Below are positions 809 to 59,000 of a DNA stretch of 64,000 nt, piece by piece (within the stretch, counting starts at the first letter, position 1; each line of letters begins with the position of its first letter). The translations under genes and the position numbers were made by a program. Below the pieces are notes generated by a model. It saw only the letters and a list, made by a program, of their open reading frames with translations. It did not search any database and was not told where the DNA came from. Source of the stretch: Anaerolineae bacterium (lineage in GTDB: Bacteria > Chloroflexota > Anaerolineae > UBA3071); the NCBI GenBank assembly GCA_029907105.1, contig JARYMM010000002.1, positions 18,992 to 82,991 of the forward strand, read 5' to 3'.

Positions 809-939
809 ACGGGGCGCCGTCCGATTTGACAGCTTCATGGATATGATGAAGACCTCCTGGCGCTTGGGAACTTTGAGGGTATTGAGATTATAGACGCGTG
901 CCTTCTTGGAGCGATTGGGAGCGTGAGAGGAGTAGGCTG

Positions 940-4702: not shown

Positions 4703-4785
4703 GCGCGATACGTGATCCGTGATGCGTGTTGCGCGATTTACGATGCGGGGTTACGTTTCACGCATCACGCATTACGCATCACGCC
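4703..4785. repeat. family F4 REP-like element, largest copy, with inverted (ACGTGATCCGTGATGCGTG) and direct (ACGTTTCACGCATCACGCATTACGCATCACGCC) units able to form a long hairpin
   Basis: Lies between the radical-SAM gene start and the EF-G gene end. Confidence 0.75.
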
Positions 4786-12232: not shown

Positions 12233-12368
12233 GGAGGCGGCAGAGCATCGCGTCTGGCCAGGTGGCCTTGTAGGGCTGTCTTTCTAGCCCGCCTGGCTGC
12301 CCAGCGCAGGCCAGAGGGCCTGCCCATTCTCGCTCTGATGATCTGCAGAGGCTAGAAAGGAGATGGTG

Positions 12369-24123: not shown

Positions 24124-26769
24124 TCAGGGAGCAAGCTCGATGGCTTTCAAGATCACATATTCACCGCGCAGAAGCCCGAAGGGGCCGCGGCGGGCGGGGA
24201 TGCGCTGGCCGTCGCTGGCCCGTTCCAGGGCGACGACGAGCCGGTAGCGGCCAGGCGGCGCGTCAGCGGGGACAGTCAGCTCGTGGCGGTCGCCCACAGG
24301 GTAATCCGTCGCCCAGAGCGAGGTGGGATAACGGCCATCCACCGGCCGGCCCGCGGCGCGGGCCACGATGCGGTCGCCTGCGTCCAGCAGTTGCAGCACC
24401 ACCAGATAGTCGTCCACGTACGGCGAGGGACGGGGACGCCAACACAGCTTGACGGGGATGACATCGCCGGGCCGCAGCCGCGTGGCCGGGCTGTAAGCTT
24501 CGAGCAGTTCGATATAGTCGAAGCGGGCCAGCGGGCGCTCGCCAGGCCTCATGGACGGCTCCTCGGGCAGGGTGATCTCCACGCCGCCCAGTTGCAGGCG
24601 ATGGCCATCGGCCACGGAGAGGCCATCTTCGGAGACCGCAGGCAGCGGTTCAGCCATGGCCGGGTCATACAGCACCAGCTCGACGCTGTACCGGCCGGGA
24701 GGCGTATCCCCAGGCACAGGCAGGCGCACAGGCTGGCGTTCAACGCCCCCCGCTGGCCAGCGGGAGGTGGTATAGAGGCTGCCCAACGGGCGCTCGTCCG
24801 GCGGCTGGCTCCAGACGCGGCCCTGGGCATCCACCAGGCGCAGCGAGGTGGCGTAGTCGGCGGCCGGAGGCTGGCGTACCTGCCAAAAGAGGGCCGTGTA
24901 CAGCGTCTGCCCGGCGGCAAGGGTGCCGCAACAGGGCGGGACGTAGAGCGTGAACAGGTCGCCGAAGGCAGCGCGGCGGGCATCGGCCGGCGGCTCAACA
25001 GCACGCTGGCGGGGCAGCACCCCCTGCACCCGCATGTTGGCCTCGCCAGTGAAGACCCGATCCTCGAACAGCTCCCCATAGGCGTCCAACAGGCCCCGGA
25101 TCACCCCCTGCGGGTCGTTGACCGTGTCGTAGATGCGGTAGTGCCACAGGCGAGGATGGGTGGCCAGGAGCAGGGCGAGCTTCTCCTTCGCCAGGTCGCC
25201 GGGCAAGGCGTAAAAGTCGGACGCCGGATCGCCCCAGCCCAGGCGGGGGTCGCCGTCAATGTGCCCTGTCTGCACGATGACCGCGCCGTCGGCGGAAGCC
25301 GCTGCTGGGGTGTAGTCGCTCAGCCGCCCGCGCCAGGCGATGGGCAACTGCAAGTAGGTCAGCAGCGCCGTGTAGCTATAGCCGGCGTTGACCAGGATGA
25401 CGTCACCGGGCCGCCACTGTTCGCTCAGCAAGCGTGCGGCGGCGCGGTGGTCGTCGCTGGCGTAGCGCGGGTCGCCCCACAGGTTGTGCAGGGAGAAGCC
25501 GGAAGCGGCGAGGATGACGGCCAGCGCGCCGACGGCCAGCGGCCGCCTCCAGCGCCGCCAGCGGAGGAGAGCCACAATGCCTGCCGCCAGGACCAGGCTG
25601 AAGGGCGGTGCGTAGGCGAAGACGTAGCGGACGTGATATAGCGGCGTGAACAAAGAAGCCAGGAAGACAAGCAGCACCGGGACGAGAGTATGGATGGCCA
25701 GGGGAAAGGAAGGAAAGGAGGGAAAGGAAGGGACGATCTCTTGCATTCCCTCCATTTCCTTCTCTTCCTTCGTTTCCCTTCTTAGAAGCCCAAGTATGTA
25801 AAGGGCAGCCGTCATGACTAAGAGCGGCCACACGCGTTGCGGTTCCACGGATTGTCCGAAGCTGAGCGCACTCCAGGTTTCCGTCAGCATGTCCCACAGC
25901 CCGGTAAAGGTGCGCCAGGGCGGCACGGGCGGGTCGGTGGCCTGCCGCCAGGCGATGGGCAGCCAGGGTGCGTACAGGAGCAGAACGGCGGCCTGGGCGA
26001 GGAACCAGGCCCGAAGCCGGAACCTGGAACCTGAAACCTGGAACCCTCCGGGCCGAGCGCCTCGGCCGACGCCTCGGCGGAGGCCCTCAGGGCGAAGCCT
26101 GGAACACGCCACTACGATGACCCATAGATTAAGGGCGACGAGGAGGAAGGCGAAGTAGTAGAGAACGTAGAGGCCAGCGGCAGCAGCGAGGACGTAAAGG
26201 ATGAGTGCGCAGCGGTCAGGGGTCAAGGGATAGGGGTTAGGGGAGGTTCCCTTTGGCTCAGAACCTGAAACCATCTGGGGGCTCACGAAGTGGATGATGC
26301 ACCGAAGACAGATCAGCCCCAGCACCGCGCCGAGGGTGTACATGCGCACCTCTTGCGCGTACCAGACGTGGAAGGGGGAGATGGCCGTGAGCGCTGCCGC
26401 CAAAAGCGCCGTCGGCTCATCGTACAGGCGGCGGCCCAGGGTGTAGATGAGCGGGATCAGCATCATGCCGAAGACGAGGGAGAGGAGCGCAGCAGCGAAC
26501 TCCAGGCCGTGGCCGTCGGCGTCGGCATGGCCGGTGGGATAGCCGAAGAGAAGCAGCCAGCCGCGCAGCAGCAGATAGTAGCCGGGCGGATGGATGTCGC
26601 CGGCGGTGTGGGCGATGAGGGCGGGCACGGGCTTGCCCGCCAGGTGCACGCTGACCGTCTCGTCGTACCAGAGGCTCTGCGCGCCGAGCCGGTGCAGGCG
26701 CAGGCCAAAGGCGGCCAGCAGGATGAGCAGCAGGATCAGGCGAGAGCGAGCAGCGGCATGGCGAACCAT
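24124..26769 (-). CDS. GT39/GT83-family (ArnT/PMT-like) membrane glycosyltransferase with a large C-terminal extracytoplasmic domain
   Basis: N-terminus LILLLILLAAFGLRLHRLGAQSLWYDE...DIHPPGYYLLLRGW. Multiple transmembrane helices. 881 aa. Contains an in-frame F1 repeat insertion. Confidence 0.65.
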   Translation of the reverse strand: MVRHAAARSRLILLLILLAAFGLRLHRLGAQSLWYDETVSVHLAGKPVPALIAHTAGDIHPPGYYLLLRGWLLLFGYPTGHADADGHGLEFAAALLSLVFGMMLIPLIYTLGRRLYDEPTALLAAALTAISPFHVWYAQEVRMYTLGAVLGLICLRCIIHFVSPQMVSGSEPKGTSPNPYPLTPDRCALILYVLAAAAGLYVLYYFAFLLVALNLWVIVVACSRLRPEGLRRGVGRGARPGGFQVSGSRFRLRAWFLAQAAVLLLYAPWLPIAWRQATDPPVPPWRTFTGLWDMLTETWSALSFGQSVEPQRVWPLLVMTAALYILGLLRRETKEEKEMEGMQEIVPSFPSFPSFPLAIHTLVPVLLVFLASLFTPLYHVRYVFAYAPPFSLVLAAGIVALLRWRRWRRPLAVGALAVILAASGFSLHNLWGDPRYASDDHRAAARLLSEQWRPGDVILVNAGYSYTALLTYLQLPIAWRGRLSDYTPAAASADGAVIVQTGHIDGDPRLGWGDPASDFYALPGDLAKEKLALLLATHPRLWHYRIYDTVNDPQGVIRGLLDAYGELFEDRVFTGEANMRVQGVLPRQRAVEPPADARRAAFGDLFTLYVPPCCGTLAAGQTLYTALFWQVRQPPAADYATSLRLVDAQGRVWSQPPDERPLGSLYTTSRWPAGGVERQPVRLPVPGDTPPGRYSVELVLYDPAMAEPLPAVSEDGLSVADGHRLQLGGVEITLPEEPSMRPGERPLARFDYIELLEAYSPATRLRPGDVIPVKLCWRPRPSPYVDDYLVVLQLLDAGDRIVARAAGRPVDGRYPTSLWATDYPVGDRHELTVPADAPPGRYRLVVALERASDGQRIPARRGPFGLLRGEYVILKAIELAP
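26001..26107. repeat. family F1 element (half hairpin plus conserved 43-bp core) inserted in-frame in the GT39 gene
   Basis: Heptamers CGGAACC TGGAACC TGAAACC TGGAACC are followed by the core CGGGCCGAGCGCCTCGGCCGACGCCTCGGCGGAGGCCCTCAG. The core is identical at 42/43 positions to 53820..53862. It encodes ...LRPEGLRRGVGRGARPGGFQVSGSRFRLRAW... in the glycosyltransferase. Confidence 0.8.
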
Positions 26770-29111: not shown

Positions 29112-29897
29112 ATGCGAAAAGACATCGTCAGACAATGGGTCAATGTGCTGGCATTGGTCGTGACCTTCGTTATCAACTCGTTGGCCGCGGCCCTGCCCCT
29201 GGGCGGGCTGACCACGGGAGAGATATCCGATCTCTTCCCTGTCTACTTCACGCCCGCCAACTATGTGTTCAGGATCTGGTTCCTGATCTACGCGGCACTG
29301 TTTGGTTTCATCGTCTACCAGGCTCTCCCTTCGCAACGGGAGAACCCACGTCTGCGCCGCGTCGGCTACCTGTTTGTCCTCAGTGCTCTGGCCAATACCG
29401 TCTGGCTGCTGCTGTGGCACTTCTGGCGCTTCCCGCTCAGCCTGGTGGCCATGATCGTGCTGCTGCTGACGCTGATCGTCATCTACCTGCGCCTGGGCAT
29501 CGGCCGCACCAGGGTCAGCACGGCCGAGACCTGGCTGGTGCGCGTGCCCTTCAGCATTTACCTGGGCTGGATCACCGTGGCCACCATCGCCAACGCCACC
29601 ACAGTCCTGCAGTATTTCAACTGGAGCGGCTGGGGCCTTAGCCCGCAGGTCTGGACGGTGATCATGCTGGCCGCGGCCACGGTCATCGGCGCGCTGGTGA
29701 GCCTGAGGCGGGGCGATGCGGCTTACATGCTCGTCCTCGTCTGGGCCTTCGCCGGCATCGCCGTGAAGCATGCGGCCACGCCCGTGGTGGCCATCGCCGC
29801 CTGGGTGGCCGCGGCGCTGGCCGCCGTCATGCTCGTTGTGGGCGTGCTGCTGAAAAGGGCGAGAGGCGGGGGACGAGAGGCGAGAAGCGAGGCGTGA
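29112..29897 (+). CDS. TspO/MBR-like tryptophan-rich membrane protein with a C-terminal extension
   Basis: Five or more transmembrane helices and high Trp content. FTPANYVFRIWFLIYAALFG and YLGWITVATIAN resemble TspO TM1 and TM5. AGGAGA ribosome-binding site; the start follows the carH stop by 2 nt. Confidence 0.5.
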   Translation: MRKDIVRQWVNVLALVVTFVINSLAAALPLGGLTTGEISDLFPVYFTPANYVFRIWFLIYAALFGFIVYQALPSQRENPRLRRVGYLFVLSALANTVWLLLWHFWRFPLSLVAMIVLLLTLIVIYLRLGIGRTRVSTAETWLVRVPFSIYLGWITVATIANATTVLQYFNWSGWGLSPQVWTVIMLAAATVIGALVSLRRGDAAYMLVLVWAFAGIAVKHAATPVVAIAAWVAAALAAVMLVVGVLLKRARGGGREARSEA

Positions 29898-30035
29898 GAG
29901 GCGAGGGGCAAAGATGAGCATCGTCCTGCTGGAAGGCCAGCGGGGTGTGCCGCGCTGCCTGCGGGAACTGGGCTCACCTTTCGTTTCCCGGAAGCGGAGA
30001 GGGCCCTGTGCGACGTGCTTGGAGCAGCGTGACAG

Positions 30036-44995: not shown

Positions 44996-47900
44996 TCAAG
45001 GCCTGGACGGGCGCTGACGCGCCGCCTTCAGCTCCCGCACGCGCCCACGGCGATCAATCTGGAAACGCCGCACGTAGCGGGGCGGCAACTCGAAAGCAAA
45101 ACGTGAAGGGCCGCGCAGGAAACCATCGCCCCGATCGCGGGTGGAACAGAGATAGAGCCGTTCCCTGGCCCGCGTCATGCCCACGTAAAACACCCGCCGT
45201 TCCTCGGCCAGCGCGGCTTCCTGCCCCTCCTGCAGCGTCGTCCACAGCGGCAGGTTCTCTTCCTCCACGCCGATGATGATGACCACCGGAAACTCGGTGC
45301 CCTTGGCGTTATGCAGGGTCATCAACGTCACCCGGTCTGGCCGGGTCTCGTGGGCGAAGGTGTCCACGTTGACCACCAGCGCCTGATAGTCAAGAAAGGC
45401 GGAAAGGGAACGGTCTGCGCTGAAACGCAGGAAGGCGGCCACCTGCTGCTGGAACGCCTCCCGCAGGCGATCCCAGGCTTCGTCCACCAGCGGTGGCGGT
45501 TCCTCCGCCTCCAGCCGTGCGGCAAGCAAGGTCAGCCTCTCCTCCGCCTGTGGCCGCAGCTCCCGCACCCGTGCCAGACCCACGATCTCCCCCGAACGCT
45601 GCACGACCCGTCGCGCCGCATTGAGCAGGGCCGCCATCGGGATCATTCCGCCATCCGCATTCCGCTTTTCGCAATGCAGCTCCAGCAGTCCCAGGACGGC
45701 CAACGGCAACAACTCGGGCAGAGCACGCAACGCCGTCTGCCAGCGGTTCTCGGCCAGCAAACGCTCGAAGAGCGCCGCTACCTGGCGCACATCCCCGGCC
45801 GCGCGGTGCTCCACCCGCTCTCCCAGGCCGAAATAGCGCAGCAGGCTCTCCAGACTGTAGCTCGCCGGCGCATCCGGCCCATCGCGCAGCAGGCGGCGGG
45901 CCAGCGTCAACGTGTCCAGGTACGGGTTGCGAAAGCCCCGTCCCAGCAACCGCCCGGCCTCGCGGTCGAGAAAGCGATTGTCGAAGCCTTCGACATTGTG
46001 CCCGACCACGGTGTCGGTGCCGACGTAGGCCAGGAAGCGGGGCAGCACCCTCTCGATGCCCTCGGCGTCCCTGACGTCTTCCCAGCGCAATCCGTGAACC
46101 TGGGTGGCCGCTTTGGGAATGAAACCCTGTTCCGGCCGCACCCTGGCGTAGAAGGGTTCCCCGGCCGGCCTGCCTCCCCGCATGGCCATCCCACCGATCT
46201 CGATGATCTCATCACGTCGGGCATTGGTGCCCGTGGTCTCCAGATCGTAGACGACGAAAGAACCTTCGCCCAGCCGCTCGTGGGCGGCCAGCAGGTCCTG
46301 GGCGAAACGGTAGGCAACCACGCTGCACGGAGTTTCGGGTTCCAGGTTCCGGGTTTCAGGCTCCAGGCTCCAGGCTTCGGGTTCTGAGGCCGGGCTTCTG
46401 GCCTCGAGTCTTAAACCCCCGGCTTCGGGGATGAGTTCAATGTCCAACGGGCGGCCCAGGTAGTGCTGCAGGGTGTGCTCCAGGATGGCCGCCGCGCAGG
46501 CGCCGTCGAGGGTAGCCGGCGCAGTCAGCCGGAGGCGGGCACCCGCCTGGAGTTGGTCGCGCAGCCGTCCAGCCTCCTCGGAAAACGCGCATCCGCTGGC
46601 CCAGGTGCGCCATTTCTGCCATTCTCCCCGCTCAAAGGGACTGCGCCGCTGCTCCAGCAGGGTGAACAGCTTTTCCATGATGACGTCTACGGCCTCCGCG
46701 CTGGCCGGTTTCAACTCCTCCTCGAACAGGCGCAGAAAGCCTTGCAGATTGGCGCGGGTGAGCGGGCTGAGCTCGGGGAAGGCCTGGGCACGGCGGGCCA
46801 GATCGGCCAACCCCACGGCGTGGAAGTCCGCCAGCCTTTGCAACTGCATCACCGTCAGCTCGTCGGCCAGCGTCTGCGGGAAGTTGAGCGCTTCGAGGAT
46901 GGCCTGGTCGTCGGCCAGCGAGCGAATGAGGTGCAGGTAGCGCACCACTTCCCGCGCCCCCGGTTGCTCGAAGAAGTTTTTCTTGCGCACCCGCTGCAGC
47001 GGGATCTGCTCTTGTCCCAGGTATCCCTCCAGGTCGTCGGCCAGTTGATGGGTGCGATAAAAGATGGCGATGTCCCCGCAGGCATAGCCATGCCCGTCGG
47101 CCAGGCGGCGGATGAGACGGGTGATCAGGCGATGCTCCTGTGCGACATCGGCCAGCAGATAGTGATGGATGGGAGCCCCGCGGCCCCGGCTGGTGTGCAG
47201 AAACCGCCGGCGCTGCGGCGACCGCTGGCGGGCGATCATGTTCTGGGCAGCATAGAGAATGGTCTCCGTGCTGCGATAACACTCGGTGAGTTCGATCACC
47301 CGCGGGTGATAGCGGGCGATGAACTCGTCCACCAACTGCGGCTGCGCCCCTCGCCATTCGTAGATGGACTGGTCGTCGTCGGCCACGGCCATGACGTCGG
47401 CCCCTGGCGGGCACAGCAGGGTGAGCAGTTCGTATTGGGCGCGGTTGATGTCCTGATACTCATCCACCAGCACGTGCGGCAGCAGGCGTTGCAACTCCTG
47501 GCGCACCTCCGCCCGCTCCCGCAGCAGGCGCACGGTTTCGCCGATGAGATCGTCGAAGTCGAGGGCCCGGCGGGCACGCAAACCTTCGGCATAATCGGCA
47601 GCCAATTCGGCCCACAGTGGATCCCCGACGCTTTCGCCCGAGGCAGCTCGCGCCAGATCGCGCAACGCCGCTTTCTCGTAGCTGACGAAATCCCGCAGGC
47701 GATAGACCGGGTACAGCTCCTGGCTCAGGTTGCGCCGCGTGATGACGCTCCGCCAGATGGCGTCCTGCAGTACTTCGTCGGCGACGATGAAATCGGGCAG
47801 CAGGCCGATGGCCGCGCCATGCCGGCGCAGGATGCGCAGGCAGGCGGCGTGAAAGGTGTGGATCCAGATGTCTGCTGCCGCCGGCCCCAGCAGGTGTTCC

Positions 47901-48130
47901 AGGCGCGAGCGCATCTCCTCAGCGGCTTTGTTGGTAAAGGTCACGCAGAGCAACCGCGTGGGGGGCACCTTTCGCTCGACGACGAGATAGGCCACACGGG
48001 AGGTCAGGGTACGGGTCTTGCCGCTCCCCGGGCCGGCCAGCACCAACACCGGACCGGGCTCGAGTGTCACTGCCTGCCGTTGGCTGTCGTTCAGGCTTGC
48101 CAGAATCTCTTCCGTCGTGTGCAGGGTCAT
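44996..48130 (-). CDS. UvrD/PcrA-family SF1 helicase with an inserted DnaQ-type (DEDDh) 3'-5' exonuclease domain
   Basis: N-terminal VLVLAGPGSGKTRTL (Walker A). Middle segment VVYDLETTG...HNVEGFD...HRAAGD has exonuclease motifs I-III. C-terminal MTLHNAKGTEFP...VGMTRAR (UvrD C-domain). Start at MTLHTTEE (ATG 48130). Contains an in-frame F1 heptamer insertion. Confidence 0.8.
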   Translation of the reverse strand: MTLHTTEEILASLNDSQRQAVTLEPGPVLVLAGPGSGKTRTLTSRVAYLVVERKVPPTRLLCVTFTNKAAEEMRSRLEHLLGPAAADIWIHTFHAACLRILRRHGAAIGLLPDFIVADEVLQDAIWRSVITRRNLSQELYPVYRLRDFVSYEKAALRDLARAASGESVGDPLWAELAADYAEGLRARRALDFDDLIGETVRLLRERAEVRQELQRLLPHVLVDEYQDINRAQYELLTLLCPPGADVMAVADDDQSIYEWRGAQPQLVDEFIARYHPRVIELTECYRSTETILYAAQNMIARQRSPQRRRFLHTSRGRGAPIHHYLLADVAQEHRLITRLIRRLADGHGYACGDIAIFYRTHQLADDLEGYLGQEQIPLQRVRKKNFFEQPGAREVVRYLHLIRSLADDQAILEALNFPQTLADELTVMQLQRLADFHAVGLADLARRAQAFPELSPLTRANLQGFLRLFEEELKPASAEAVDVIMEKLFTLLEQRRSPFERGEWQKWRTWASGCAFSEEAGRLRDQLQAGARLRLTAPATLDGACAAAILEHTLQHYLGRPLDIELIPEAGGLRLEARSPASEPEAWSLEPETRNLEPETPCSVVAYRFAQDLLAAHERLGEGSFVVYDLETTGTNARRDEIIEIGGMAMRGGRPAGEPFYARVRPEQGFIPKAATQVHGLRWEDVRDAEGIERVLPRFLAYVGTDTVVGHNVEGFDNRFLDREAGRLLGRGFRNPYLDTLTLARRLLRDGPDAPASYSLESLLRYFGLGERVEHRAAGDVRQVAALFERLLAENRWQTALRALPELLPLAVLGLLELHCEKRNADGGMIPMAALLNAARRVVQRSGEIVGLARVRELRPQAEERLTLLAARLEAEEPPPLVDEAWDRLREAFQQQVAAFLRFSADRSLSAFLDYQALVVNVDTFAHETRPDRVTLMTLHNAKGTEFPVVIIIGVEEENLPLWTTLQEGQEAALAEERRVFYVGMTRARERLYLCSTRDRGDGFLRGPSRFAFELPPRYVRRFQIDRRGRVRELKAARQRPSRP
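46331..46432. repeat. family F1 heptamer array (about 14 consecutive 7-nt units: GGTTCCA GGTTCCG GGTTTCA GGCTCCA GGCTCCA GGCTTCG ...) in-frame inside the helicase gene
   Basis: Encodes ...ARSPASEPEAWSLEPETRNLEPETP... between the helicase and exonuclease domains. Confidence 0.8.
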
Positions 48131-48179
48131 GATCAGGTGTCCACCGCCTCGTGCGGTTGCCCGGCTTGCTCTATGTTCT

Positions 48180-48207
48180 ATTATAGCATACTCCTGGCGT
48201 AAGTCAA
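48180..48207 (-). promoter_or_regulatory. promoter TTGACT-16-TATAAT (TGc extended -10) for the helicase-exonuclease gene
   Basis: Plus-strand ATTATA at 48180..48185 and AGTCAA at 48202..48207. Confidence 0.5.
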
Positions 48208-48276
48208 GGGGTTTTTTGAAACGAGTTTCGATCGTTGAGGCTTGTGCGCCATCCTTGCACAGGTCTGGCCTCCAAC

Positions 48277-48305
48277 TTGACAAATATCAAGGGACATGCT
48301 ACAAT
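48277..48305 (+). promoter_or_regulatory. consensus sigma70 promoter TTGACA-17-TACAAT for the perR-led oxidative-stress operon
   Basis: The -35 is at 48277..48282 and the -10 at 48300..48305. The imperfect dyad TTAGAATGGTTATCGTTTAA (48314..48333) over the transcript start is a possible autoregulatory box. Confidence 0.6.
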
Positions 48306-48357
48306 CTCCTCAGTTTAGAATGGTTATCGTTTAATGAGGCTTGTCGTGAGGCAGACG

Positions 48358-48828
48358 ATGCTGACAACTGAGGAGATGTGTCGGAAGTTTCGGGCCCTGG
48401 GGCTGAAGGTGACGCCCCAGAGGCGCTTCATCTTCCAGGTGCTGGAGGGAAACCCCCATCACCCCTCGGCCGAGGCGGTTTACGCAGAAGTGCGTGCTTT
48501 TATCCCTGAGATCTCTCTGGCTACCGTGTACAACACGCTGCGCGAGCTGGTGGACCTGGGTGAACTGCGCGAGTTGAACCTGGGGGATGGCAAGAGCCAT
48601 TACGATCCCGACCTGAGCAACCACCAACATCTGGTGTGCGTGCGCTGCCACGCCGTCGCAGACGTGACCTGTGATATCGGTGGCCTTACCCTGACTCCGG
48701 AGCAAAGCCGGGGCTACCGACTTCTGGGCACTGATGTGACGTTCTACGGCCTGTGCCCCGCCTGCCAGCAGCAGGCGGATTGGCCGGGGCAGGCTTTGCA
48801 CCTGTGGGGGGTATCACCCGCAGCCTGA
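48358..48828 (+). CDS. perR: Fur-family metalloregulator, PerR-like
   Basis: Has a KVTPQRRFIFQVL DNA-binding helix and the HHxHxxCxxC metal site (NHQHLVCVRCH). Position heads a peroxide-stress operon. Confidence 0.7.
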   Translation: MLTTEEMCRKFRALGLKVTPQRRFIFQVLEGNPHHPSAEAVYAEVRAFIPEISLATVYNTLRELVDLGELRELNLGDGKSHYDPDLSNHQHLVCVRCHAVADVTCDIGGLTLTPEQSRGYRLLGTDVTFYGLCPACQQQADWPGQALHLWGVSPAA

Positions 48829-48861
48829 ATGCACATTACGATCGAAAGAAAGGATGACCCA

Positions 48862-49356
48862 ATGGCAAGAACAGATTTCGATTACATGAGCGGGGAGCAA
48901 TACCTGGAGGAGATCCTTCGCCAGGCGATCCGCTTCGAAGAGGAATCGTACGCCCTTTACACCAACGCCATCCGGATCAGCACGATGGCCGATGCCCGGG
49001 CCATGCTGGAGGACCTGGCTGCGCAGGAGTTGGGGCACAAACAGAAATTGCAGCGCCTTCAGGCACAGGGAGTCGCCAACCTTGTCCCTGTGGTGAGGAC
49101 GGCGGAGGCTCGGGACCTCAAACTGGCCGAGGTCTTGCAGGCGCCCTCGGAACTGGATGAAGAAGCCGACCTGCAGGACGTATTACTGGTGGCCATGCAG
49201 CGAGAGAAATCCACTCGCGAGTTCTATCTGAAGCTGGGACAGGTCACCGAAGAAGGGCCGGTCAGGAGCCTGTTCGATTTTCTGGCCGAAGAGGAGTTGA
49301 AGCATAAGCAGCGGGTCGAGTCGCTCTACGAGCAACTGGTCTACCGGGAGTTCTGA
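48862..49356 (+). CDS. rubrerythrin-like ferritin-fold diiron protein (no rubredoxin domain)
   Basis: Has two E...ExxH pairs ([30 protein letters not shown]). Confidence 0.6.
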
Positions 49357-49411
49357 TCGGAAAACGGCCAATGCGATTGGCCTTCTACCCTTTACACGAG
49401 GAGAACATAGC

Positions 49412-49573
49412 ATGAAGAAGTACGAATGTCTCGCTTGCGGCTACATTTACGATCCTGAGCTGGGCGATCCCGATGGGGGCATCGCTCCCGGCACCGCTTT
49501 CGAGGACTTGCCCGACGATTGGGTCTGCCCTCAGTGCGGTGTGGGCAAGGACATGTTCGAGCCCCTGGATTGA
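49412..49573 (+). CDS. rub: rubredoxin (53 aa); not present in the supplied ORF track
   Basis: Sequence [53 protein letters not shown] has two CxxCG knuckles. GAGGAG ribosome-binding site. Confidence 0.85.
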
Positions 49574-49590
49574 GTGAGGCCGGCGAAAGC

Positions 49591-50793
49591 ATGTCAGCCA
49601 TTGCCATCAAACCCGACGTCTATTGGATCGGTGTCAACGATCGGACGACCGACCTTTTTGAGGGCTTGTGGCCGATCTCGCAAGAGGGCGTTTCCTACAA
49701 CGCCTACCTCATCAACGACGAGAAGAAAGCGCTCATAGACCTGGCCAAAGCCTTCAAGGCGGACGAATTCTTCGACCACATCGGCGAAGTGGTGGATCCC
49801 TCGCGGCTTGACTACGTCATCATCAACCACATGGAGCCCGACCACACCGGCGTCTTGAACACGCTGCGCCGCATTGCCCCGCAGGTGACCCTTCTGGGTT
49901 CGGCCAAGACGAAGGAGATGCTGGCCTCTTTCTACGGTGTCACGGAAAACGTCGAGGTGGTCGGCGATGGCGATACCCTCTCTCTGGGCCACAGCACATT
50001 GCAGTTTTTCTCCACGCCCTTTGTGCACTGGCCGGAGACGATGATGACCTACGAGACCGGGCGGCGCATCCTTTTCTCCTGCGACGCTTTCGGTGGCTAC
50101 GGCGCGCTGCGCGGGGCCATCTTCGACGACGAGTACCCCGACCTGGGCTTCTATCAGCGGGAGGCCCTTCGCTACTATGCGAACATCATCGCCGGTTTCA
50201 GCAAACGGGTGCTGATGGCCATCGAGAAGCTGGCCGATGTGCCCGTGGAGATCATCGCCCCTTCGCACGGGCTGATCTGGCGGCAGCATCCCCAGCTCAT
50301 CGTCAACCTTTACCGCCAATGGGCCGAGTATGCCGAGAGCGGTGGCGAGGTCGGCGTGACCCTCGTCTACGGGTCCATGTACGGCTACACGGAGAAGATG
50401 ATGAATGCGGTGGCGCAAGGCATCTCCCGCGCTGGCGTGCCGGTGGAGATTTTCGACGCCGCCAGGACGCACGTCAGCTACATCCTGCCCTCCCTGTGGG
50501 CCCGGATCGGCGTGATGGTCGGCGCTCCGACCTACGAGGTCTCCCTGTTTCCTCCCGTGGCCCAGGTGCTGGACATGGCCGTGCACAAGCGCGTACGGCA
50601 TAAGAAGGCAGCCCGGTTCGGCAGCTACGGCTGGAGCGGCGGCGCGCAGAAACACTTCGAGCGCCTCGTTGAATCGGCAGGCTGGGAATTGCTGGACGTT
50701 TTCGAGTTCGTGGGCAGCCCTTCGCCGGAGGAGCTGGAGCAGGGCGAGGAATTCGGTGCCCGCTTCGCTGCACGGATCAGGGAGGGGCGATGA
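49591..50793 (+). CDS. fprA: flavodiiron protein (FprA; rubredoxin:oxygen/NO oxidoreductase)
   Basis: N-terminal metallo-beta-lactamase fold with HxExDH (HMEPDH) and a C-terminal flavodoxin domain. 400 aa. Confidence 0.85.
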   Translation: MSAIAIKPDVYWIGVNDRTTDLFEGLWPISQEGVSYNAYLINDEKKALIDLAKAFKADEFFDHIGEVVDPSRLDYVIINHMEPDHTGVLNTLRRIAPQVTLLGSAKTKEMLASFYGVTENVEVVGDGDTLSLGHSTLQFFSTPFVHWPETMMTYETGRRILFSCDAFGGYGALRGAIFDDEYPDLGFYQREALRYYANIIAGFSKRVLMAIEKLADVPVEIIAPSHGLIWRQHPQLIVNLYRQWAEYAESGGEVGVTLVYGSMYGYTEKMMNAVAQGISRAGVPVEIFDAARTHVSYILPSLWARIGVMVGAPTYEVSLFPPVAQVLDMAVHKRVRHKKAARFGSYGWSGGAQKHFERLVESAGWELLDVFEFVGSPSPEELEQGEEFGARFAARIREGR

Positions 50794-50811
50794 CGGTTGT
50801 CACATAATGTC

Positions 50812-52029
50812 ATGAATTTCACGATTATCGGCAACGGTGTGGCCGGCAACACCGCCGCCCTGGCCCTGAGCAGGCTCGTCCCAGGGGCGCGGGTTGACGT
50901 CTATGCTGCCGAAGCGCATCCCTACTACCCCCGCCCGCTGCTGCCCGAATTCCTGGCCGGCGAGCTGGACCTGGAACACCTGTACTTCAAGCCCCTGTCC
51001 TGGTATGCCGGGCGGAGCATCGCCCTGCACCTGGGCGTGCCGGTGGTCGCCATCATCCTGCAGGAACATCGCATCACGCTGGCGGATGGCACGAAGGCTG
51101 GCTACGATCGTTTGCTCCTGGCCGCCGGTGGCCAGGCCTGGGTTCCCCCCATTCGGGGCGCAGACAAGCCGGGGGTGTTTACCCTGCGCACGGTGGACGA
51201 TGCCCTGGCCATCCAGTCCTATGCCCGCCGGGCGCGCCGGGCCATCGTCATCGGCGGTGGCCTGCTGGGCCTGGAGGCGGCGCGGGCGCTGCGTGTCCTG
51301 GGTCTCCAGGTGAAAGTGGTCGAGTTTCTGCCCCGCCTGTTGCCCCGCCAGCTCGATGCCGAAGGCGCTGCCGTGCTGCAGGGGCTGATCGAGGGCCGGG
51401 GCATCGAGGTCATGGTGGATGCGGCTGCGGAGGAAATCCTGGGAGCAGATGGCGTGACGGGGCTGCGGCTCAAAGACGGTCGGGAGATCGAAGGGGAGCT
51501 TGTGCTGGTCTCCACGGGCATCCGCAGCAACGTCGCCCTGGCCCGAGAGGCGGGCCTGGAGGTGAACCATGGCGTGGTCGTAGACGAACATCTGCGCACC
51601 AGCGCCGCCGACGTCTACGCCGCGGGGGACGTGGCGGAGTTCGATGCTCGGGTCTATGGCATTGTGCCCGCGGCCATCGAGCAGGCGCGGGTTGCCGCTG
51701 CCCACATGGCCGGCGACGAGAGCGCCACTTATCAGGGCACCGTGCCCTTTACCACGCTGAAGGTCACCGGCATTGATCTGACCAGCGTGGGCGTGATCAT
51801 GCCGGAGGAGGGCCGGGAAGCGGAATATCAGGAGCTGCGGCGCACGGATGGCGCCCAGGGGCTGTACCGCAAGCTGGTGTTGAAGGACGGCTGCATTGTG
51901 GGGGCCATCCTGCTGGGCGACAAGGCCCGTGTGGGCCCCGTCACGCAGTTGATCAACCGGTCAGTGGATGTCTCGGCTCACGTCGAGCGGCTCCTGGATG
52001 ACGATTTCGACCTTAAATCCCTGCTGTGA
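50812..52029 (+). CDS. NAD(P)H:rubredoxin oxidoreductase (FAD-dependent pyridine nucleotide-disulfide oxidoreductase family)
   Basis: Has FTIIGNGVAGNTAA and IVIGGGLLGLEAA dinucleotide-binding motifs. Confidence 0.75.
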   Translation: MNFTIIGNGVAGNTAALALSRLVPGARVDVYAAEAHPYYPRPLLPEFLAGELDLEHLYFKPLSWYAGRSIALHLGVPVVAIILQEHRITLADGTKAGYDRLLLAAGGQAWVPPIRGADKPGVFTLRTVDDALAIQSYARRARRAIVIGGGLLGLEAARALRVLGLQVKVVEFLPRLLPRQLDAEGAAVLQGLIEGRGIEVMVDAAAEEILGADGVTGLRLKDGREIEGELVLVSTGIRSNVALAREAGLEVNHGVVVDEHLRTSAADVYAAGDVAEFDARVYGIVPAAIEQARVAAAHMAGDESATYQGTVPFTTLKVTGIDLTSVGVIMPEEGREAEYQELRRTDGAQGLYRKLVLKDGCIVGAILLGDKARVGPVTQLINRSVDVSAHVERLLDDDFDLKSLL

Positions 52030-53756: not shown

Positions 53757-53909
53757 GGGTTTCAGGTTTCAGGTTCCAGGTTCCCGGTTTCCGGACCGAA
53801 CCTGAAACCTGAAACCCTTCGGGCTGAGCGCCTCGGCCGACGCCTCGGCGGAGGCCCTCAGAGCTTGCCCTGAGTGAAGCGAAGGGGCGAAGCCTTTGAA
53901 TCTGGAACC
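53757..53909. repeat. family F1 element, most complete copy: 38-nt heptamer arm (GGGTTTC AGGTTTC AGGTTCC AGGTTCC CGGTTTC CGG), 4-nt loop, inverted arm, then the conserved 43-bp core and tail; it acts as an intergenic hairpin/terminator between convergent operons
   Basis: Arms at 53757..53794 and 53799..53817. The core at 53820..53862 is 42/43 identical to 26050..26092. The tail GAAGCCT..GGAAC is shared with 26096..26105. The metalloprotease stop and last ~15 codons lie inside the element. Confidence 0.85.
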
Positions 53910-56041
53910 GCAGAGGGCGGTCGGATCTCGAAGGTATAAGATGCCTCTTCCGTGGTCACCGGCGCCAGCGCGCTGACCACCAATACGGCCTTTCTCCCCG
54001 TCTGCCCCAGGCCCTTGATGGGCAACTGCCCGCATCCCGTATCGTCTATCGTCATGCGCTGCACGCTGAGGCTGAGGAGGCCCTGCTCGATGACCTGCAC
54101 CAGCCAGCGCTGCGGCAGGCGACCGTCAGTCAGCACCCAGCCTTCGGTTTGCCAGTCTCCCTCCCCGCTCTCGCCGTCATCGAAAAAACCCAGCGCAGGG
54201 ATGGCGATATCGTCCACGAACCAGCCGGGGTAGTTCACCGCATCGTCGGTGACGTACTCGAAACGCACCAGCACCTCCTGCCCGACATACGGGCTCAAGT
54301 CCATCCGCTCCTTCACCCACTCCGCCTCTGCCGATGTTGGCGTTTGGATTTTGGTTTTTGGATTTTGAGCTCCGGACTTCCCTGTATAGCCGACGCCGAA
54401 AGCGTTGCCCACCGGATTGTAGTCGCTGCTGTGCTCTCCTTCCAGAATGTGCCAGGTGGCCCCGCCATCGGTGGAGACCTCCACGTAACCGTAGTCGTAC
54501 CCTTCTTCGAGGTCGTACCAGAGCCAGAACTCCAGCGTGGCCTGGCTGACCTCGCTGAGGTCGAAGGCATGGGTCAGGCGGGTGTCGCTATCGTCGGCGC
54601 GGTGCGCCCACCAGGCGAAACGGCCGCTGTGCGCGGCGGTGGCTGCCAGCCGTGTCTCCGTTGCTCCGCAAAAGTCAATCACCACATCTCCCCGCCCGCT
54701 CAGCTCGAAGTAGTCGGCAGCATACTGGTGGACGGTCGTCCTTTCGCTGACAGGGTAGCTGCGATAACGGGCCTCCAGGGCCACCGGGCGGGGATTGTCC
54801 CGCTCGTAGCCGTAACGGCCATCCTCCAGCCTGGGCCTGTCCAGAAGGTTGGCGATCACCCAGTCGGCGAAGACGTCATCGAAGCGCAGGTCATAGCCTG
54901 CAGCAGCCAGTGCCTCATCGAAGCCGGCCGGCCCGTTGGCCGGCGAGGCCACCACGGCTTGCGTCAGCTCTTCGCCGAAGCGGTCGAGGAAGTAGCTCAT
55001 GAAAAGATAGGCGTTGCCATAGTGGTAGGCATTCAACTCCGGATCGTCGGTCCAGGTGGTGAGCTGCGTGTCCGGCTCCTGGCTGAAGACCACATCTGCC
55101 CCGCCGCGGGAGAAGCCGTTCAGCTCCGTGGCCAGCTCTGAAAGCCCCTCGTTGACCCAGGTCTCCTCGTTGCGGTCGTTGGCCCAATGGATCATGTGCT
55201 GGAACTCGTGGGCCAGCGTGCCATCGTAGAAGGCGGTCCCCGGCGGGTTGTTCTCCAGGTTGATGTAGAAGATCTCCCGCTCGTTGGAGTAGGGGTTGGC
55301 CAGGCGGGAGAACTCATCGGCAGAGGAGAAGTAACCGGCCACGCTGTCGCCCAGGTTGGTGGCGTTCAGGATGGTCAGATGCACATCGTTGTCCACGCCG
55401 GGCGACCATTCGGAGCCGAAGAAGGCGCGGTTGGTGGGGTAAGTCCGCTCCTCGAAGCGCCGCGCCGAGCGCTCCAGGTCGTCCAGGTCCACGTCCACCC
55501 CCTTCTCCACCCACATGTAGACGTGCGGCAGCTTCACCAGCAGCTCCGCTTCGATCTGGAAGTGCTCTTCCGTGTCCACGTTGCCCAGCCAGAAAGTCTC
55601 CACATCGCCCACCTCGTAGTGGGGCGGGGTGGCGTTGACCACCACGGGGATCTCGCCGGCGTGGTGGCGCAGGCGCAAGGCCAGGTCGCGCAGGTCCCGC
55701 GTGGGCAACACGGCCTGCGCCAGGTGTTCCTCGGTGCTGGGCGCGGGTGTGGCCATGGCCTTCGCGGTGGGTGTCGGCGCCGGCGTATCTGTGACGAGAG
55801 GGGGAGACGGGGAGAGGGGGAGACCTTCTTCCTGTCCCCTTGTCTCCTTGTCCCCTTGTCCCCCTGTCTCAGAAGGCGTGGGCGTGCGTGTGGGCGTCGG
55901 TATCGCTGTCGGCGTCGGCGGCTGACAGGAGACGAGCAGCGAGGTCATCAGGCAAACGGCTGCCAGGCAGCAGCAGGCGAGGATGACCAATGTGACAAGG
56001 AGGATGATGAGATTACGGTTGGTGGTGCTCATTGATGCCAT
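53858..56041 (-). CDS. secreted/membrane-anchored zinc metalloprotease (HExxH; InhA/M6-like) with a Pro/Thr-rich linker
   Basis: Has HEFQHMIHWAND...NEGLSE (HExxH plus downstream Glu). N-terminal transmembrane anchor. Linker TPTAIPTPTRTPTPSE. 727 aa. Confidence 0.65.
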   Translation of the reverse strand: MASMSTTNRNLIILLVTLVILACCCLAAVCLMTSLLVSCQPPTPTAIPTPTRTPTPSETGGQGDKETRGQEEGLPLSPSPPLVTDTPAPTPTAKAMATPAPSTEEHLAQAVLPTRDLRDLALRLRHHAGEIPVVVNATPPHYEVGDVETFWLGNVDTEEHFQIEAELLVKLPHVYMWVEKGVDVDLDDLERSARRFEERTYPTNRAFFGSEWSPGVDNDVHLTILNATNLGDSVAGYFSSADEFSRLANPYSNEREIFYINLENNPPGTAFYDGTLAHEFQHMIHWANDRNEETWVNEGLSELATELNGFSRGGADVVFSQEPDTQLTTWTDDPELNAYHYGNAYLFMSYFLDRFGEELTQAVVASPANGPAGFDEALAAAGYDLRFDDVFADWVIANLLDRPRLEDGRYGYERDNPRPVALEARYRSYPVSERTTVHQYAADYFELSGRGDVVIDFCGATETRLAATAAHSGRFAWWAHRADDSDTRLTHAFDLSEVSQATLEFWLWYDLEEGYDYGYVEVSTDGGATWHILEGEHSSDYNPVGNAFGVGYTGKSGAQNPKTKIQTPTSAEAEWVKERMDLSPYVGQEVLVRFEYVTDDAVNYPGWFVDDIAIPALGFFDDGESGEGDWQTEGWVLTDGRLPQRWLVQVIEQGLLSLSVQRMTIDDTGCGQLPIKGLGQTGRKAVLVVSALAPVTTEEASYTFEIRPPSAVPDSKASPLRFTQGKL
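54339..54375. repeat. family F1-like heptamer stretch (GGCGTTT GGATTTT GGTTTTT GGATTTT GAGCTCC) in-frame inside the metalloprotease gene
   Basis: Encodes the AQNPKTKIQTPTS segment. Confidence 0.7.
55801..55872. repeat. family F3 repeat (reverse complement GACAAGGGGACAAGGAGACA...) in-frame inside the metalloprotease gene
   Basis: Encodes SETGGQGDKETRGQEEG. It pairs with 16671..16720, which encodes ETRGQGDRGE. Confidence 0.7.
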
Positions 56042-56068: not shown

Positions 56069-59000
56069 CTATTCCCGCGGCGGCAGGGGTTCGATCGCCG
56101 AAATGCGCCAGTCGGTGACATCCCTTCGGAAATGGACGCGGAAATGAAAGGCGCTGTCGCCCTCGGAGAAGAACTCGATGGGCTCTCCTTCCGCCTCCAG
56201 ATAGCCACCGGTGGCCAGCAGGCGATCGCCTTCGGGCCGCGGCAGCGACCAGCCTAGACCCAGCGCGGCTTCCACCAGCGCCTGATCGCTGACCCGTTCC
56301 GCCGCCGCGTCCAGGTCCCCCTCCCGCAGGGCGGCGATGAACTGGCTGAGCACGCTCATCGGCGTCTGCTGCAACTGCGCCGTCACCCGCACGTAGCTGT
56401 CCCCCTGCCGTTCCCAGACGGCGCCCACCCGCTGTTTGCTGTAATCGCCGATCTCGGCAAAGATTCGCGGCGCGGCGACGAAATCATCCGGCGGAGCGCC
56501 TGTCAGCCGCAGTTGCTCCAGGCCCCTGCCAGTAAACTGCACCTGCCCATCCACGCCACCCCAACTGCCGGGTGGCGCGTCCCACCAGGTCCACACCGGC
56601 TCCCAGTGGCCCGCTATCCTGCCGCTGCTGCTTATCTGCGAGGCGCAAAGCCGCAGCAACTGGTAATGCGCCTGCCGGCGGCTCCCCAGACGGTCGCCGG
56701 CAATGCCCAGTTCCAGGCCCTTCTCTCCATAGGCCGATCGCACGGCCTGCGGCGGCCGGCGCAGCGCTTCCCACATCCCGGTGCCGCTCGCCCACCACTG
56801 CTGCCACAGCTCGCCATTCTCCGGCCACAGCAGGTAGACCCACTCCCCCAGGGCAGCTACGGCGACCGGCCCTGCCCCTTCGCCGATGAAGAGGTACTCC
56901 TGGGTGCCGCGCTGGAAAACCAGCCCGCGGCCGGGCGAAGCGAGGAGGGCGCGCAGCGCGTCGGCGGCTTCTCCGCTGACCAGCCCGGACCCGCTGCTGG
57001 CGGGGGCGACGTCCGGCCGGGTCGCGGCCAGCGCTTCGGCCAGGAGGGTGGCAGTGTCACCCACGTAGACCATTGCGCCGTTCACCGTGGACGTCAGCGG
57101 CGGCCGCGGTGCATTCACGCCGCAGCCGACGATGGGCTCATCTTCCAGCGGGAAATAAGTGCGTGCATCGGCCCCATGCGCCCAGATGGTAGGGTAGGTG
57201 GTCACACCTTCCACCTCTGCCCACAGGTAGAGCTTGTTCCACGGGTTGCGGGCGGCGCGCACATCCACGTTGTTGAAATCCCACACCGGAAAGGTGATCG
57301 CCCCACGCCGCACCAGCCGCTTCTCCGCTTTCGTGGCCAGCGGCTTGCCCGTGCCCTGATTCCAGGCTCCATAGAGGGTGAGGCCGGCCGGCTCCCAGTC
57401 AACGGGCACGCTGCGGCCTGTCTCCGGCTCGAAGAGGGCCACGGTGACATTGGCCCAATCGGCCCGCTCCGCCGGCTGTTCGTGACCCAGGCCATCGTGC
57501 GGCCAGACGATCTGGATGCGCGCCTCTACTGCTTCCGGCGGGGCAGTGGCGATGCCTGTCGGCGTGTCCTGCTGGGGGAAATAGGTGCGGGGGTCGGCAC
57601 CGTGCGCCCAGATGCTGGTGGCCGTCTCCACGCCGGGCACCCGCACCAGGAAATAGAGCGTGCTCTGCCCATCGCGGGCGAGGGAGACATCCACGTCGTT
57701 CAGCTCCCAGAAGGGGAAGGGGCGGCCTTCCACGGAGCGCGGTTCGGCGGGCTTCAGCAAGCGCGCCGGCTCCGTGTTTACCGCCTGCCACACTTCGACG
57801 CGCGGCGTCCAGTGGCAGGGCGGCGGCACCAGGCTGCCAGGCCAGAAGAGCCGCAGGCCCAGGTTGGCCAGGGTTGCTTCCTGCACGGGCGCGCCGCCAT
57901 GCGGCCAGACGATCTCGATGCGGGCGTCCACCGCCTGAGGCGATGGGGGCGGCTGGGCTTCTTCTCCGGGGTTCAGGGCCCAAAGGCCGGCGGTGTCCGT
58001 GGCCGCCAGCAGGCCGGACCGTTCGCCGTGGCTTTCGGCCAGCGCCAGGACCAGGTTCTCGCCCAGGCCAGCAGCCACATTCTGCCAGCGCTGGCCACCG
58101 TCTGTGGAACGGTACACGCCGCCGCCATCGCGGCTGGCCCAGAGGGTCCCATCGGCCGTTTGCAGGAGCGAGAGGATGTCGCTGCCCGCCGGCAGCCCGG
58201 CGTGGCTGGCTTCCCAGCTCTCGCCGCCATCGCCGGAACGATAGAGGCCGGCACCGCTGGGGGCGATGTACACCTTCTCTGGGTTGGCCGCGTCCAGCAA
58301 TACACGGCGAACGGACGTCGTTTCCAGGCCCCTCGCCGCCGTGGTCAGCCGCTCCCAGCTCTGCCCGCCGTCGGACGAACGGTACAGGCCGCCCTGCTTC
58401 TCGCCGGACGATTGGGTCGCGGCGTAGAGGTCACCGCCGGCAGTCACGGCCAGGTCGTGGACGGGGAGAGGTTCCAGGCCGCTGGCCATCCAGGTGCGCC
58501 CGCCGTCTGTCGAGCGGTAGACGCCGCCATAGGTCCCGGCATAGAGCGTGTCGGCATCGTCGGGATCGAAGGCCAGGGCCTGGACAGGATGAGCATCGAG
58601 TGACACTTCCGCCCACGTCGTGCCGCTGTCTGCGCTCCACACCAGACCCCGGGAGGTGGCCACGAAGAGGTGAGAAGCCCACTTGGGGTGCTGCGTGAGG
58701 GCCCGCACGTCTTCCCACGGCCCTGTGGCCAGCGTGCGCCAGCTCTGGCCCCCATCGTCGCTGGAGAGCAGGGAGACCAACGGCTGGCCGAAAGCGGCAT
58801 GGGCCCACTGTAAGGCGACGGTGATGGTGCCGGGCGGAAACGGCGAGGTGAGCAACGCTCGCAGTTTGCTATTGGGCGGCAGGCCGACGCCGGTGGGCTG
58901 CCAGTGCTCCCCCGCGTCGGGGCTGAGGTACAGGCCGTGGCCGGTGGCGGCGAAGACGCTGCCCGGCTGAGCGGGGCGGGCCAGCAATGCCGTGGCTCCG

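Follow-up and report, generated by a model that had tools for sequence, protein, structure and literature searches.

The window analysed here is a stretch of 64,000 nucleotides from contig JARYMM010000002.1 of an Anaerolineae bacterium, and its minus strand carries a gene for a 1044-residue helicase-exonuclease with a nested architecture. Subdomain 2A of a UvrD/PcrA-type motor encloses subdomain 2B, 2B encloses a degenerate RecJ-type DHH segment, and the DHH segment encloses a DEDDh exonuclease. We consider it fairly probable, judging from sequence conservation and family membership, that the protein is a chromosomal, stand-alone DNA-repair enzyme in which a superfamily 1A (SF1A) motor and an active DEDDh exonuclease would together unwind DNA and degrade a 3′-ended strand. 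The first-pass annotation of this DNA had described a UvrD-family helicase with an embedded DnaQ-type proofreading exonuclease, and in its main lines this description is borne out. Four features were absent from the first-pass annotation: the location of the insert in 2B, the nesting of DEDDh in RecJ-DHH, the loss of both the GIG motif and the Tudor domain, and the status of ‘proofreading’ as a label only.

The gene is real and intact. In the list of open reading frames (ORFs) of the window, the minus-strand ORF at 44996-48130 runs from an ATG at 48130 and encodes 1044 amino acids plus the stop codon, which is the single ORF read at first pass. The longest frame (44996..48283, minus strand) would begin with a TTG at 48283. 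The ATG is supported as the start because a near-consensus promoter (48207-48180) falls within the longer TTG frame, because the homologues begin there too, and because NCBI MDH7484857.1 has the identical sequence of 1044 residues. That entry is named ‘UvrD-helicase domain-containing protein [Anaerolineae bacterium]’ and comes from a 160-kb contig of a metagenome-assembled genome (MAG). The promoter scan returned 4 sites against 0.5 expected in shuffled sequence.

44996..48130, minus strand: complete helicase-exonuclease coding sequence (ORF list, Pfam architecture, NCBI identity, AlphaFold2 model)
48180..48207, minus strand: sigma-70-type promoter TTGACT-16-(TG)TATAAT, which matches at 11 of 12 positions and lies some 45 nt ahead of the ATG

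A copy that is 94% identical and has the same neighbours was found in independent ENA and Logan assemblies, and the frame is unbroken in the independent NCBI, ENA and Logan assemblies. Nearly all of 80 species-level genomes likewise have a single full-length ORF for the helicase-exonuclease, the exceptions being six loci at contig ends or partly shown (L011, L019, L030, L033, L043 and L067) and the frameshifted locus L076. A frame broken into two genes, the weak point named earlier, is thus not what these assemblies contain. An assembly or annotation artefact joining two genes is, in our judgement, next to inconceivable, as the same uninterrupted ORF recurs across independent assemblies and species-level genomes and, with the insertion lying within one subdomain, splitting would leave two non-functional helicase halves. 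Nothing was found in its favour. A single related locus, L076 (4414-7918), on a 1.3-Mb Chloroflexia MAG contig, is split by a frameshift into two overlapping ORFs; the frameshift may stem from a sequencing error, or the locus may be a pseudogene.

The motor is complete. Checking the domain architecture with profile models, Pfam found UvrD-helicase at residues 13-274 (E 6e-74), UvrD_C (E 2e-44), which is divided into two stretches with the second at 900-997, and RNase_T. The Walker A motif GPGSGKT lies at 48014-48034, motif II (DEYQD) at 47450-47464 and motif VI (VGMTRAR) at 45164-45184; these coordinates were verified, and both the UvrD/PcrA N-terminal helicase domains and the UvrD C-terminal domain recognised at first pass hold. 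Helicase motifs Q, I, Ia, II (DExQD), III, IV, V and VI are all present. In an alignment of 86 sequences, made up of the window protein and 85 full-length homologues with 35-94% identity to it, the residues of these motifs either do not vary or are kept in at least 90%.

46721..48130, minus strand: helicase residues 1-470, covering 1A, 1B, the first half of 2A and the first part of 2B (BLASTP to PcrA, motif conservation)
44996..45520, minus strand: residues 871-1044, the return to 2B, the second half of 2A with motif VI, and a short basic tail (BLASTP to PcrA)

An AlphaFold2 model run with the family alignment reached a predicted local distance difference test score (pLDDT) of 91.3 and a predicted template modelling score of 0.87, and a Foldseek match showed the four-subdomain 1A/1B/2A/2B fold in it. 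Its core is closest to the DNA-bound ‘closed’ PcrA/UvrD structures 3pjr, 4c30 and 2is1 (template modelling scores of 0.81-0.84, target-normalised), whereas apo forms fit less well (0.61-0.70). The best sequence match was 1pjr (E 8e-96). The NCBIfam equivalog cut-offs were missed by a wide distance for PcrA (445 against 911 bits, TIGR01073), UvrD (359 against 1144, TIGR01075) and Rep (365 against 951, TIGR01074).

This motor carries an insert of about 400 residues. In a BLASTP comparison with the canonical PcrA P0104, residues 8-470 aligned with PcrA 2-464 (39% identity) and residues 871-1022 with PcrA 490-638. Because the two blocks break at PcrA 464/490, residues 471-870 replace about 25 residues within 2B. 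The exonuclease thus does not separate two helicase halves, as the order helicase, exonuclease and UvrD C-terminal domain given at first pass might suggest, but lies with the rest of the insert inside a single subdomain.

46547..46720, minus strand: start of the insert, residues 471-528, with helices, a conserved RRSP[FYW] motif and a helix matching the one before RecJ motif I (AlphaFold2, hhalign)
46328..46546, minus strand: degenerate RecJ-type DHH segment, residues 529-601, truncated in the window lineage
45725..46270, minus strand: DEDDh 3′-5′ exonuclease domain, residues 621-802 (Pfam RNase_T, 2p1j alignment, conservation, substitution rates)
45521..45724, minus strand: post-exonuclease helices, residues 803-870, the RecJ motif IV segment with its catalytic Asp lost (flank-only hhalign)

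We searched 1.8 billion representatives with the insert. The fusion family itself was found first, followed by proteins of about 750 residues that are RecJ with a DEDDh domain inserted in DHH (order DHH, RNase_T, DHHA1, RecJ_OB; hereafter RecJ::DEDDh). Matches to designer PPR proteins were rejected as a repeat artefact. The insert is colinear with one RecJ::DEDDh protein across residues 55-431 (hhalign probability 99.9%). After removal of the exonuclease, the pre-exonuclease flank still matched its counterpart with a probability of 96.6% (E 6e-10) and the post-exonuclease flank with 95.5% (E 1.6e-8), whereas the crossed flank controls gave 0.6% and 0.1%. Because each flank alone matches its RecJ::DEDDh counterpart and the crossed controls do not, the architecture is a nested one.

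The flanks have the DHH fold and lack the catalytic motifs of RecJ. D542 is the sole Asp kept from motif I, motifs II and III are absent, and the RecJ motif IV segment, with the pattern GT.AD..PL..ENR, is homologous to residues 803-870. Overall, the DHH triad and motifs II-IV are absent or replaced, and no DHHA1 or OB match was obtained with Pfam in the window protein. P498 in the first part of the insert is at least 90% conserved in the 86 sequences and invariant in smaller alignments. As judged from these profile comparisons, the nested module is the counterpart of a separate RecJ::DEDDh family that is itself undescribed; our literature search returned no RecJ-DEDDh protein. This second family (P0229, P0254, P0199, P0176, about 85 clusters, and locus L084 at 531-2765) occurs in MAGs of Brevinematales, Elusimicrobia and Spirochaetes, where its members are annotated just ‘RecJ’. 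The RecJ::DEDDh chimeras retain DHH motifs I-IV, and because all of these motifs are intact they may be dual 5′-3′ and 3′-5′ exonucleases.

The exonuclease itself is complete in its motifs. Pfam RNase_T (PF00929) matches residues 626-788 (E 3e-27), and the three motifs quoted at first pass (VYDLETTG, HNVEGFD and HRAAGD) were all found at verified coordinates: Exo I with D629 and E631 at 46238-46246, Exo II (HNVEGFD) at 45980-46000 and Exo III (HRAAGD) at 45791-45808. In the 86-sequence alignment D629, E631, H711, N712, D717 and H775 show no variation and D780 is kept in at least 90% of the sequences, and so the catalytic Asp and Glu residues are not missing. All its motifs line up with those of the proofreading exonuclease of Thermotoga PolC (2p1j, E 2.6e-28) and also with Cas2-DEDDh and a DnaQ structure, so that its nearest relatives are of the DNA proofreading or trimming type. 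All NCBIfam DnaQ and PolC models, on the other hand, stay far below their cut-offs, the NCBIfam DinG model covers only the exonuclease region (624-794), and the Pfam scan of the window protein found no polymerase domain. Of the earlier ‘DnaQ-type proofreading’ domain we can keep the DnaQ-like fold, while ‘proofreading’ names that fold and not an activity.

Every segment of the protein is under purifying selection. Compared with the 94%-identical relative, the ratio of nonsynonymous to synonymous substitution rates (dN/dS) was 0.13 in the N-terminal part of the helicase, 0.10 in the linker and DHH-like part, 0.13 in the exonuclease, 0.32 in the helical bundle and 0.09 in the C-terminal part of 2A. 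An inactive exonuclease is unlikely because the catalytic residues are invariant, and the domain is predicted to be active. It is accordingly hard to credit that the exonuclease is a non-catalytic regulatory or DNA-binding appendage and the protein in effect a helicase only: the active-site residues named above persist among sequences only 35-94% identical to the window protein, and the dN/dS of the domain is low. What speaks for such an appendage is that the adjoining DHH-like part has lost its catalytic motifs, so that inactivation did occur in this protein. As a separate observation, a very large ‘DNA 3′-5′ helicase’ of an uncultured Caudovirales phage (BFVD A0A6J5QNL6) contains a segment that is 36% identical to the exonuclease over 175 columns; phages may hold other combinations of helicase and DEDDh with a different layout.

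Two hallmarks of canonical PcrA and UvrD are missing from the entire fusion family. At one position of 2B the canonical N.P.RGIG has become NFP....DELT in all fusion members. GIG, which contacts duplex DNA in the autoinhibited monomer (PMC11912403), is thereby lost. The Tudor domain (PF21196), which binds RNA polymerase (PMC11912403) and is carried by the canonical PcrA matches, has no Pfam match in the window protein, and the BLASTP alignment with PcrA stops at residue 1022 of 1044. Contacts between 2B subdomains are known to activate the helicase (PMC11912403).

46850..46885, minus strand: position of the 2B ‘GIG’ duplex contact, here NFPQTLADELTV (comparison of canonical and fusion consensus)

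For the repair enzyme that we favour, the simplest model is that the motor opens the duplex and the exonuclease removes a 3′-ended strand, because the two polarities coincide. The motor would translocate 3′-5′ on single-stranded DNA and open the duplex ahead of it, and the exonuclease, acting in the same 3′-5′ direction, would remove a 3′-ended strand that the motor has made single-stranded, so that the enzyme alone could excise a strand from a nick, a gap or an end. Because 2B has lost the duplex-clamping GIG and bears the nuclease, its swivel would probably decide when the nuclease reaches the DNA. The RecJ ancestry of the module fits such excision by one protein. In mismatch and excision repair of E. 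coli, this job is shared by UvrD and the separate exonucleases ExoI, ExoX and RecJ. Several points weigh against the model. The exonuclease site may face either the trailing 3′ tail, on the 1A side, or the junction and duplex, on the 2B side. DEDDh domains can also act on RNA. Moreover, the pathway is uncertain because 3′-5′ strand removal yields no 3′ tails for recombination.

A different use of the same parts would be primer-end or gap processing, which we regard as unlikely. Here the protein would anchor at a 5′-tailed junction, and the exonuclease borne by 2B would trim the recessed 3′-OH strand, which could be a damaged 3′ end or the nascent strand of a fork that has stalled or been reversed, while the strand tracked by the motor would not be degraded. 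PcrA has been described as reeling in DNA from a 5′-tailed junction to strip RecA. The nuclease sits on 2B, which overlies the duplex and the junction in closed monomer-DNA complexes (PMC11912403), and our model is nearest to these closed forms. However, GIG, which holds the duplex in the closed conformation, is lost. That the nearest exonuclease relatives are primer-end proofreaders, e.g. PolC, is consistent with trimming, as is the divergent position of the window gene next to an oxidative-stress cluster (Fur-family regulator, rubrerythrin and flavodiiron protein), but this neighbourhood is confined to the closest relatives.

Action on RNA is less probable still. In this scenario the motor would displace RNA from RNA:DNA hybrids, an action known for PcrA and UvrD, and the DEDDh domain would degrade the RNA from its 3′ end, a form of R-loop or RNA surveillance. 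DEDDh enzymes include RNases, ExoDinG of B. subtilis has been described as an exo(ribo)nuclease (PMC12525004), and PcrA is reported to suppress R-loops (PMC8318588). In addition, there is a weak Pfam-level likeness to Rv2179c-like exoribonucleases in the related RecJ chimeras. Nevertheless, we consider the RNA scenario improbable because the Tudor domain that couples PcrA and UvrD to RNA polymerase is absent and the exonuclease relatives are of the DNA type. The best matches of the exonuclease are DNA exonucleases, and the module derives from RecJ, which is itself a DNA exonuclease.

We also put forward, tentatively, a more far-reaching reading in which 2B has become a nuclease-delivery arm that gates an exonuclease held in a dead RecJ scaffold, the module having been captured from a RecJ::DEDDh dual exonuclease and the gene having spread between Chloroflexota and Poribacteria. 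If this is true, one monomer would accomplish the whole of excision, from unwinding a strand through holding it to degrading it, and the swivel of the autoinhibitory 2B, normally the on/off switch of the helicase, would gate the exonuclease instead. The role of 2B in the UvrD family is debated, with autoinhibition, dimerisation and duplex contact all being considered; Rep changes its activity when 2B is removed. The fusion family is a natural variant in which these uses can be tested, as it has lost GIG and carries a nuclease module of 400 residues.

To follow the phyletic distribution of the fusion, we used the insert alignment to scan a single genome from each GTDB species. The best 80 loci are all from MAGs: by record title, 38 belong to Chloroflexota (Anaerolineae, Caldilineales, one Herpetosiphonaceae and one Chloroflexia), 40 to Candidatus Poribacteria, including many complete chromosomes such as OX638316.1 and OZ244587.1, and 2 to an ‘uncultured bacterium’. 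MFC1713134.1 is one of the Poribacteria orthologues. The fusion is thus present in at least 80 species-level genomes of mainly these two phyla, and the architecture was seen in about 60-70 representatives, counted at 50% identity, among the 1.8 billion searched. A neighbour-joining tree built on the helicase core places all 86 fusions in one clade apart from 30 canonical PcrAs, with subclades of 49 and 36 members and the long-branch outlier P0088; the named members of the larger subclade are Chloroflexota and those of the smaller are Poribacteria. Core identity between fusions and canonical PcrAs is 36%, compared to 51% among the canonical PcrAs. The family is uncharacterised, database names for it are generic and it has no curated family. 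Our literature search returned no UvrD/PcrA-DEDDh protein, and a DNA polymerase survey checked for helicase fusions contained none. As for the source organism, the nearest GTDB species representative is about 55% identical in the helicase-exonuclease (50% over the insert region scanned), and 94%-identical relatives of the window protein occur in the raw metagenome assemblies ERZ4756919 and ERR6058144. The DNA seems to come from a lineage of Anaerolineae for which no species representative is close.

The surroundings of the gene are ordinary chromosome with a housekeeping context. The window contains genes for UvdE, EF-G, pyruvate kinase, alanine racemase, a primary sigma factor and PCMT as well as the Fur-family/rubrerythrin/flavodiiron cluster. 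All-against-all ORF clustering of 84 loci gave no conserved partner gene across both phyla; ORF clusters with high counts were rejected as partners, as they proved to be antisense ORFs inside the helicase-exonuclease gene. Linkage to the primary sigma factor was likewise discarded as a general feature, being limited to the window, its close relatives L001 and L002, and L003, L020 and L026. The Poribacteria neighbours, judged by eye without a family search, look like dioxygenase-like, amidohydrolase and WD40 genes, and their pattern reflects synteny only.

This context bears on whether the protein might be a helicase-nuclease similar to Gabija GajB or Nhi, with a role in anti-phage defence or in a mobile element, which we think very improbable. 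The PADLOC models for GajB and for Cas-associated DEDDh do score well. These matches, however, reflect generic UvrD and DEDDh similarity, no GajA-like (OLD-family) or other conserved partner was found across the 84 loci, and the window neighbours (sigma-70 factor, PCMT, Fur) are housekeeping genes. Furthermore, the two clades of the helicase-core tree match the two phyla where members are named, and none of the 167 matching phage records covers at least 80% of the query. A phage origin was rejected as well, the architecture being present in no phage record or BFVD model.

Some neighbouring features of the window are recorded here in their own right. Divergent from the helicase gene, 48334-52029 (plus strand) encodes the Fur-family regulator, a rubrerythrin-like protein, a flavodiiron protein and an NADH:rubredoxin-type oxidoreductase. 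This cluster has its own near-consensus promoter (48277-48305), is common to the 94%-identical relative and is absent next to more distant family members. At 12363-13364 (plus strand) lies a gene for an L,D-transpeptidase (YkuD) with three LysM domains, whose LysM repeat (12465-12980) consists of 2.8 copies of a 183-bp unit with 92% DNA identity, which suggests that the domains were duplicated recently. An ORF of 603 amino acids at 898-2709 (plus strand) matches the UV endonuclease UvdE at residues 50-255 only, the long remainder having no Pfam match; either the ORF was called too long or the UvdE is an extended one.

The helicase-exonuclease gene also contains a heptanucleotide tandem array, which the first-pass annotation had noticed as an insertion at the junction of helicase and exonuclease. 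The array is real, but it lies in the degenerate DHH-like segment, about 20 residues ahead of the exonuclease. It has approximately 7.5 copies of RARCCYG on the coding strand, encoding SEPEAWSLEPETRNLEPETP.

46332..46384, minus strand: in-frame heptanucleotide tandem array encoding EPEAWSLEPETRNLEPE (Tandem Repeats Finder, sequence)

The DHH segment that holds the array is shorter in the window lineage than in most family members, and the AlphaFold2 model has a pLDDT of 67 for residues 591-600. P0264, P0002 and P0003 each lack exactly 7 amino acids at the array, corresponding to 21 nt or three heptamers, and length differences at this site were seen both in the same 90% cluster and in 75-77% relatives. 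Because relatives differ by exactly 7 amino acids, the length of the array varies without a shift of frame, and the loop in which this happens is poorly conserved. Tandem arrays of 7 nt with related units were found in the window at 286-313, 26018-26045, 46332-46384, 53758-53816 and 57358-57371, and further 7-nt arrays at 2709-2743, 4758-4784, 29858-29909 and 54343-54367, in genic as well as intergenic DNA. A unit of the TGGAACC/TGAAACC type has 13 matches in the window against 0.45 expected. The heptamer repeats look like a genome-wide habit that is not specific to the helicase gene.

The family appears to fuse activities that are kept separate in model bacteria, namely UvrD and ExoI, ExoX and RecJ. 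Among SF1A helicases it would be the first to carry a DEDDh exonuclease, and the two polarities match. Poribacteria and many Anaerolineae and Caldilineales, all uncultured groups, seem to have it among their core genes. The RecJ::DEDDh chimeras are a second uncharacterised nuclease architecture.

Fusions of helicases and nucleases are known from AddA, RecB, AdnB, ExoDinG and WRN, and an SF1A helicase with a DEDDh domain nested in a dead RecJ within 2B has not been described in the literature searched. The window protein shares with PcrA, UvrD and Rep all motor motifs, the 1A/1B/2A/2B fold and the expected 3′-5′ polarity; unlike them, it has a 2B insertion of 400 amino acids, is without GIG or the Tudor domain and belongs to a separate clade. 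WRN, to which the protein had been likened at first pass, is a eukaryotic enzyme on an SF2 RecQ scaffold with an N-terminal DEDDy exonuclease, and it pairs a 3′-5′ helicase with a 3′-5′ exonuclease. The likeness is valid for this pairing of polarities but not for the scaffold, as the two architectures are not homologous. AddA, RecB and AdnB are also SF1A 3′-5′ motors, and their nuclease cuts the 3′-ended strand as it leaves the motor. In contrast to the window protein, theirs is a C-terminal PD-(D/E)XK endonuclease working in heteromeric complexes; no PD-(D/E)XK domain was matched by Pfam in the window protein, and the AddA and RecB models match it at the motor only, with weaker fold and sequence matches. 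Cdc45, the inactive RecJ-fold subunit of CMG, works as a chain of its own within a hexameric SF6 helicase rather than as an insert in an SF1 monomer, and offers an analogy only.

The comparison with DinG, also drawn at first pass, holds in that ExoDinG of Gram-positive bacteria unites a helicase and a DEDDh 3′-5′ exonuclease in a single polypeptide; DinG of S. aureus and B. subtilis has demonstrated exonuclease activity (PMC12345164, PMC12525004, PMC11981726). It fails for the core and the layout, since ExoDinG is an SF2 XPD-like 5′-3′ helicase with an N-terminal DEDDh fusion, whereas the window protein is of the SF1A 3′-5′ type with an internal domain, and its helicase and exonuclease polarities match. 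The RecJ::DEDDh proteins have the same order as the window module (first part of DHH, DEDDh, DHH motif IV segment), and the whole module is colinear with them. The chimeras, however, keep DHH motifs I-IV, DHHA1 and OB and have no helicase, whereas the module of the window protein is degenerate and lies inside one.

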